A DNA stretch of 51,886 nucleotides. Source: Escherichia phage PhiR12_2. Location of the stretch: sequence record PV340550; one strand, 5' to 3'. Positions 7,759 through 8,382 of this stretch are shown here, piece after piece; positions within the stretch are counted from its first letter, which is position 1; every line of letters starts with the position of its first letter. The position numbers and the translations under genes were made by a program. Below the pieces are notes generated by a model, which was not told where the DNA came from, made no database searches, and worked only from the letters and a program-made list of their open reading frames with translations.

Positions 7759-8382
7759 TTATGCGGCCTCGGAAGGAAGTCCAATCATCTTATTCAAATC
7801 TTCTACCCGTAAAGCAGGAAGTGCTGTACTTGCTTTATCTGCTTCTTTTGGTAGCAATTCTTTGCTTTCAGGCCAAACTTCAATAAGTCGCTTAACTGTT
7901 GTGACTGATTTCAAAGCAGCCCATACATTTGATTCGATATCCTTTTTCTTGGCTTCAAGTTTTTGTTGCAATGCGCAGATTTCATCAAACCTTTTTGTTA
8001 TTTCGTGTTCTGCGTCAAACATGCATTTATCTTTGATCGGAGTAGGGAGCAATATATCTTTGCCGTTGCCGTCTTTCCCATATGAATGCCATCCAACCCT
8101 TCTGCCAGATACAGTCAGATAAATTGAAGTAGAACTAACATCGTATGAGTAAAATGAACATCCCATCTTTCCAAGTTCTTCACTTATAGCTACCAACTTG
8201 GATGATAACTGATCCACTTCCTCAGTTTTCTTTTTACCGCCAAACGCAATAACTCTGGCGTCAAGTGCAAGCTGGTTCTTTAACTTTGTTACTTCTTCAA
8301 GTTCAGTGAACACCCCGGACTTAATTAAAGCGTTACGAGCGATTTCCTCTTTCATTCTCGTAGTTAAGCGGATTGATGACAT
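7759..8382 (-). CDS. hypothetical 207-aa protein immediately downstream of N
   Basis: ATG at 8382 (MSSIRLTTRMKEEIARNAL..) with a GAGAGGA ribosome-binding site; the track's 8442 start is a TTG. Soluble, Lys/Glu-rich, no domain recognised; AT-rich. Confidence 0.5.
   Translation of the reverse strand: MSSIRLTTRMKEEIARNALIKSGVFTELEEVTKLKNQLALDARVIAFGGKKKTEEVDQLSSKLVAISEELGKMGCSFYSYDVSSTSIYLTVSGRRVGWHSYGKDGNGKDILLPTPIKDKCMFDAEHEITKRFDEICALQQKLEAKKKDIESNVWAALKSVTTVKRLIEVWPESKELLPKEADKASTALPALRVEDLNKMIGLPSEAA

Follow-up and report, generated by a model that had tools for sequence, protein, structure and literature searches.

Between the antiterminator gene N and cIII, the early-left operon of lambda has a variable slot, occupied there by ea10, ral and sieB, and we were curious to see what fills the corresponding position in Escherichia phage PhiR12_2 (sequence record PV340550; "the window" is the whole stretch analyzed, 51,886 nt). 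The gene in question, here called nmad5, lies immediately downstream from N on the minus strand (7759–8382). A preliminary description of this DNA had matched its 207-aa product to no family and had proposed an anti-defense or exclusion function. The product is almost certainly a full-length, single-domain member of the Nmad5 family (PF18757, "Nucleotide modification associated domain 5" in Pfam; PHROG 1965): the Pfam profile matched residues 4–203 over positions 1–206 of 206 (E = 8.6e-71, 238.7 bits vs. a cut-off of 27), and PHROG 1965, annotated as function unknown, matched with E = 4.8e-83. Identical or near-identical copies were found in RefSeq in 211 of 5,426 complete E. coli genomes, with the product name "Nmad5 family putative nucleotide modification protein" on every copy listed. 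As both the gene and its family had been catalogued before, with this copy a typical member, correcting the "no family" verdict is not in itself new. What we add is a positional rule, by which Nmad5 is the first gene of the early-left operon and precedes the recombination module, together with its occurrence as a cassette after several N/Nun alleles, the absence of a relative in the PDB, and the mapping of a residue involved in escape from the Tmn defense to the invariant motif of the family.

The gene itself proved to be real as placed: it is intact and has a good ribosome-binding site (GAGAGG, 7 nt ahead of the ATG), and the distance of 60 nt previously given between the N stop and its start was measured as 61 nt. 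Read from an upstream TTG, the open reading frame (ORF) is also intact (7759–8442, minus strand; 227 aa in the ORF listing); counted from the ATG at 8382 its length is 207 aa, and the N-termini of homologs all fall at this same point, with the form MSS/MTS-xRLT. As had been described, the 23-kDa product is soluble and rich in Lys and Glu (K 11.6%, E 9.7%; grand average of hydropathy −0.32), and it has no hydrophobic or membrane segment, the top Kyte-Doolittle score over 19 residues being 0.58. Its pI is 8.3 and its net charge +1.7; the median pI of the family is 7.6. The ratio of nonsynonymous to synonymous substitution rates (dN/dS) among 60 distinct close alleles was ~0.30, indicating that nmad5 is an expressed coding gene under purifying selection. 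Its GC content is 39.9%, vs. 51% for the whole window. A 1.7-kb region is 100% identical in Escherichia phages PhiR12_1, PhiR12_2_star, PhiR12_4 and PhiR12_5, whose annotations call the gene hypothetical.

When 1.84 billion cluster representatives were searched exhaustively with a profile, 2,254 family clusters (50% identity) were recovered at E ≤ 1e-3, of which 131 reached E ≤ 1e-30. The family is confined to phages and prophages. The best 150 profile matches are mostly stand-alone proteins of ~200 aa (185–235 aa), and no domain fusions were observed, with PF18757 the sole domain in 109 of 109 indexed matches. In a comparison of 56 diverse members, invariance was limited to W170, E172 and N197, and a further set (R5, I14, A18, R43, G48, G93, T162, L166, P171, L176, P178, L196 and G201) is conserved in at least 90%; the window protein has every conserved residue that we tested (R5, R43, G48, G93, T162, L166, W170-P-E172, L176, P178, L196-N197 and G201). 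Conservation is densest in the C-terminal 45 residues, SVTTxK[KR]LLxxWPExxELLP...LPA....DLN..IGLP, and phages of enterobacteria, Pseudomonas, Bordetella, Vibrio, Acinetobacter, Dinoroseobacter and one cyanobacterium share this motif. Few papers mention Nmad5, and we found none on PF18757 or phrog_1965; the family was reportedly defined by Iyer et al. in 2013. The nmad5 product has no match in PADLOC or NCBIfam, and the "NMAD" component of DefensePredictor is Nmad2, which makes it irrelevant to Nmad5.

The AlphaFold2 (AF2) model of the protein is confident, with a mean predicted local distance difference test score (pLDDT) of 84.8, and combines three N-terminal helices with a beta-hairpin, one long helix and, at the C-terminus, small helices; the last 24 residues (184–207) are conserved, yet were modeled with low confidence. 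A Foldseek comparison of the model with the PDB returned nothing under E 0.2, and a profile search of PDB chain sequences gave nothing significant, with a match to AcrE1 at E 0.44 regarded as noise. Fold searches gave generic helical matches only, none to a DNA mimic, and neither these searches nor the pattern of family conservation revealed a catalytic-type fold or motif. We also compared the C-terminus by eye with clamp-binding and helix-hairpin-helix motifs, and neither consensus fits. Among phage protein families with no assigned function, Nmad5 is one of the larger at 2,254 clusters, and it lacks a structural relative in the PDB.

The operon of the window runs from a pL-like promoter through nutL, N, nmad5, a series of hairpins and terminators, cIII, Erf and a protein with a tail like that of single-stranded DNA-binding protein (SSB) to Abc2 (Table 1). 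With promoter, boxB and N all upstream, nmad5 is, as previously described, the first gene after N, in the slot that is variable in lambda. These signals place it firmly as the predicted second cistron of the N-antiterminated early-left transcript. Since the scan showed no promoter-like site from pL to nmad5, the gene would be repressed together with pL; within minutes after infection or induction its product should appear, and in a lysogen the gene should be silent. Lambda Ral, Ea10 and SieB and P22 Ral are likewise encoded by non-essential accessory genes in the N–cIII slot, and Ral and Ea10 share the pL/N-dependent early expression. These proteins differ from the nmad5 product in size, and the latter has no Pfam match to Ral, SieB or Lar (PF14354). 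An hhalign probability <1% (Ral 0.1%, Gam 0.2%) led us to reject a remote relationship with Ea10, Ral or Gam of lambda; the Abc2 of the window is a separate gene.

We examined the context of 80 close relatives of nmad5 from IMG/VR as a sample of lambdoid phages. The gene directly upstream was a P22/21-like N in 22 loci, a lambda-like N in 17, an N of the H-19B type (as here) in 12, the Nun of HK022 in eight and a fifth type in five; in the rest it was something else or could not be identified. In the E. coli genomes, full-length copies of this N allele were counted in 414, of this cIII allele in 336 and of nmad5 in 209 (209–211), and where the same N allele occurs without nmad5, other unknown genes fill the slot. 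The N, nmad5 and cIII modules are unlinked, and nmad5 is an optional, low-GC, exchangeable cassette that follows five or more different N/Nun alleles. At the very start of the early-left operon, Nmad5 occurs in many temperate phages, Stx-converting ones among them. PhiR12, HK542 and mEp235 grow on E. coli K-12, and a non-essential cassette in a well-understood operon would make them a convenient system for studying the function of the family.

For a broader view of gene neighborhoods, a distant member was used as lead sequence, giving 80 IMG/VR loci that fell into 22 groups at 70% identity; ORFs were called anew, neighbors were clustered by BLASTP and the clusters were named via Pfam. A cI-like S24 repressor was observed 247–3518 nt upstream, on the same strand, in 11 of the 22 groups, which makes Nmad5 the first or an early gene of the leftward early operon even in phages without N. 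Exonucleases of the DUF2800, DUF3799 or YqaJ type lay within 6 kb in 14 groups, and an exonuclease, RecT, SSB, Enc34-type SSB or PolA gene lay within that distance in 16; with one exception, these neighbors share the strand of nmad5. Among annotated virulent phages, the arrangements include PolA–DUF6378–ThyX–Nmad5–PD-(D/E)XK nuclease–primase in Ithacavirus SP154, helicase...Nmad5–exonuclease in cyanophage Pan1, and Nmad5 after the primase-helicase in phage eiAU. The gene is also found in replication modules of N4-like phages and Yuaviruses, and it is the first gene, divergent from a helix-turn-helix regulator, in Cornellvirus W5. Four IMG/VR loci (L127, L165, L093 and L130) contain a recurrent module of cI-like repressor, Nmad5, a ~250-aa protein without a Pfam match, a DUF2800 PD-(D/E)XK nuclease, an Enc34-type SSB and PolA, in which Nmad5 is not always placed the same way with respect to the nuclease and the SSB.

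The sole genetic phenotype reported for Nmad5 ties the family to bacterial defense. Dhillonviruses escape the Tmn defense through the Nmad5 changes K216E (in SM_A8) or K296E (in SM_S22), and reversion of the escape mutation restores sensitivity; deletion of nmad5 gives viable phage but no escape, and the wild-type gene could not be cloned and is apparently toxic (PMC11846954, Yamashita et al. 2025). Because deletion does not allow escape, the substitution behaves as a gain or change of function and not as a loss. The Dhillonvirus protein belongs to the same Pfam family (E = 1.3e-54 for the BF9 homolog), and its C-terminal half is 33% identical to that of the window protein, with a shared T-x-K-K/R-L...WPE...LN..G-P motif. 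It differs in its length of 254 aa (334 aa as annotated in SM_S22), a ~40-residue insertion, a divergent N-terminal half, an overall identity of ~25% and the place of its gene in a virulent phage, outside a pL operon. We retrieved both genes: at the N-terminus, the SM_S22 annotation has 80 residues more than that of SM_A8, and the escape lysine, the second K of T-D-K-K-L-I-K-A-W-P-E, aligns with R165 of the window protein, five residues before the invariant W170-P-E172. By this alignment, the Tmn-escape phenotype maps to the most conserved module of the family.

It is plausible, if short of probable, that Nmad5 works in phage DNA metabolism as an early binding protein without catalytic activity; we infer both the binding and the partner. 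The grounds for this are the predicted fold, conservation that is polar and sparse, a motif independent of the host, the toxicity, and repeated placement beside genes for exonuclease, annealase, SSB and polymerase, in virulent phages as well. A helical core would carry the invariant C-terminal module T162-x-K-R165-L ... W170-P-E172 ... E-L-x-P178 ... L196-N197 ... G201-L-P, and this module would dock on a partner that is identical across hosts; candidates are DNA, a nucleotide, and some component of replication or recombination that is conserved universally. The protein might thereby help or shield replicating or recombining phage DNA, and in lambdoid phages it would do so as a dispensable, exchangeable cassette. 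Several points weigh against such a role. The linkage to recombination genes may simply reflect shared early operons. The protein is near neutral and not basic, and in lambdoid phages the gene is optional, as the allele counts above indicate. In SPN3UB nmad5 is in the nin region, and in Dhillonvirus it is a lone opposite-strand gene amid the head genes, where its deletion is tolerated. Finally, Tmn escape is the only experimental datum for the family, and it concerns defense, not replication.

A somewhat weaker possibility is that Nmad5 acts in anti-defense, as an immediate-early inhibitor, decoy or sponge of a host immune component, through its conserved C-terminal surface. This would fit a gene that comes first after N/Nun, or first from pL, in many temperate phages, and that behaves as an optional cassette of low GC content paired with different N/Nun alleles. 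That K216E or K296E confers escape from Tmn and deletion does not can be read as a change in the specificity of an inhibitor (PMC11846954), and the escape residue aligns with R165, beside the invariant WPE. However, the family is broad and ancient, with motifs invariant across unrelated hosts even though defense systems are patchy, and with members in the replication clusters of virulent phages. T7 Ocr and ArdA are early, small, soluble proteins of incoming DNA and are strongly acidic; their likeness to the nmad5 product is one of timing only, and a DNA mimic of this type was ruled out on charge. Similarity to Ral, Gam or Ea10 is likewise lacking. The preliminary description had considered anti-restriction content plausible because of a Lar-family restriction-alleviation gene in the same operon; that gene is present in the window, but on the plus strand in the rightward pR/nin operon and not in the pL operon (Table 1), and the argument from a shared operon is wrong.

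A role in DNA metabolism and one in anti-defense are not exclusive, since shielding of DNA intermediates would satisfy both. Bolder, and on balance unlikely, is the idea that the name "Nmad5" is a misnomer for a widespread immediate-early class of phage proteins of unseen fold, whose WPE...LN..GLP module would bind a universally conserved host target or a nucleotide signal and so protect phage DNA as it enters or replicates. If this is true, Nmad5 would be a broad-spectrum counter-defense or host-takeover factor whose specificity would be altered by the Tmn-escape mutation.

That Nmad5 is a DNA- or nucleotide-modification enzyme, or an obligatory cofactor or targeting subunit of one, as the family name implies, appears improbable. 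The association with modification genes on which the name is based is limited to Yuavirus, Ithacavirus and a few IMG/VR loci. In Yuavirus and M6-like phages, Nmad5 does lie inside a 5-hydroxymethyl-2'-deoxyuridine (5-hmdU) hypermodification cluster, arranged in Yuavirus PAE1 as 5-hmdU kinase–HNH–Nmad5–hydroxymethylase...PolA and matched by the SN1/M6 cassette (PMC9476957). In Ithacavirus it adjoins ThyX, and in a few IMG/VR loci its neighbors include MT-A70, DUF4406, ParB-like or SNF2 genes. The Yuavirus-type Pseudomonas proteins (SN1_019; PAE1 Orf51) resemble the product studied here in family (Pfam E = 7.4e-51), in length class (186 aa) and in being encoded by stand-alone early or middle genes; unlike it, they belong to a thymidine-hypermodification cassette with a 5-hmdU DNA kinase, an aGPT-Pplase and a hydroxymethylase, and no such genes are near nmad5 in the window. 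No DNA-modification enzyme was recognizable in the pL operon of the window or in the annotation of a near-identical phage, and most members from temperate phages likewise have no modification enzyme nearby. The study of the M6 5-NedU pathway assigns and tests gp51–gp54 and never mentions Nmad5 (PMC8989533), and a catalytic-type fold or motif is missing, as noted above. The RefSeq label "putative nucleotide modification protein" overstates the case, with no supporting context in lambdoid phages.

We consider it very unlikely that nmad5 encodes a regulatory accessory that acts in early transcription or in the choice between lysis and lysogeny, for instance as a partner of N/Nun or cIII. In E. 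coli lambdoids the gene always comes right after N/Nun and before cIII, and the RNA 3' of it is highly structured; however, the virulent N4-like phages, Yuaviruses and Dhillonviruses have members of the family and have no N, nut or cIII, and nmad5 combines freely with unrelated N alleles and Nun. Least likely of all is a superinfection-exclusion protein expressed from the prophage. Lambda sieB lies in the same neighborhood; however, with no promoter-like site after pL, no membrane segment, no Pfam match to SieB, no PADLOC match, and relatives in strictly virulent phages, an exclusion function in the lysogen can hardly be expected.

Table 1. Features of the nmad5 locus and of related genes in the window
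Feature	Position	Strand	Evidence or remark
nmad5	7759–8382	−	207-aa Nmad5-family protein; PF18757 and phrog_1965 matches, dN/dS, AF2 model
Terminator-like hairpin over nmad5 stop codon	7751–7770	−	GAGGCCG...CGGCCTT + TATTTTT
Perfect hairpin (palindrome) of 12–14 bp	7687–7714	−	Folding; without U tract
Intrinsic-terminator-like hairpin	7599–7624	−	GCCCTC-caatgt-GAGGGC + TTTTTT; stem 7624–7607
Terminator-like hairpin just upstream of cIII	7567–7586	−	Hairpin scan; followed by TTTCGTT
cIII, next gene of operon	7364–7534	−	phrog_550, E 1e-22
127-aa protein between Erf and Abc2	6119–6502	−	No Pfam match; C-terminus ...EYDDSIPF
Abc2	5802–6095	−	PF11043, E 6e-64
N–nmad5 spacer, 61 nt	8383–8443	−	Holds RBS (ribosome-binding site) and remnant of older N 3' end
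N antiterminator	8444–8827	−	Pfam N_peptide, E 2.1e-15; phrog_271
nutL boxB hairpin GCGCTGACAAAGCGC	8957–8971	−	P22-type; upstream of N
pL-like promoter TTGATA-17-CATTAT	9069–9041	−	Inside 11-bp inverted repeat
Perfect 11-bp inverted repeat ACCAATAGTTC	9048–9058 and 9070–9080	−	Candidate oL operator around pL-like promoter
boxB, second copy TCGCTGACAAAGCGA	11452–11466	+	Two mismatches; nutR position, after cro
Lar-family restriction-alleviation gene	14222–14458	+	PF14354, E 1.8e-10; CPFCG zinc-ribbon motif

A scan for boxB gave two matches vs. 0.16 expected, and the copy upstream of N is one that we take to be identical to the nutL boxB of P22. The N gene, whose stop codon is at 8446–8444 and which is annotated in PV340549 as "antitermination protein N", is presumably of the H-19B/933W type, so that a boxB of one presumed type is paired here with an N of another. 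The spacer between N and nmad5 encodes, at 8394–8441 on the minus strand, the peptide CVGRQKMKLGSKPLI followed by a stop codon, which is the C-terminal peptide of a phage-21/lambda-type N, and in 39 related loci the intact N gene adjoining nmad5 ends in the same peptide. The spacer sequence is a fossil of an N allele displaced by the present H-19B-type N, marking an old recombination joint.

Downstream, a non-coding gap of 224 nt separates nmad5 from cIII (7535–7758, minus strand), and four hairpins were found in this part of the transcript. The RNA of the gap and the 3' end of nmad5 (7535–7790) folds at −88 kcal/mol (z = −7.1 vs. shuffles). Two of the hairpins had been proposed as terminator-like: the one at 7599–7624 is indeed so, with a run of six T, whereas the palindrome is real but has no U tract. 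The earlier list was incomplete, with two further terminator-like hairpins at 7770–7751 and 7586–7567. The stem of 12–14 bp without a U tract is possibly an RNA-processing or regulatory site; an Rfam scan of 7200–9400 gave only sub-threshold chance matches.

After cIII come Erf (PF04404), the 127-aa protein with its DDSIPF ending, and an Abc2 of the P22 type. The EYDDSIPF end of the 127-aa protein resembles the acidic C-terminal tail of bacterial SSB (DDDIPF), and judging from this ending the P22-type recombination module may include an SSB of non-canonical type or a mimic of the SSB tail.
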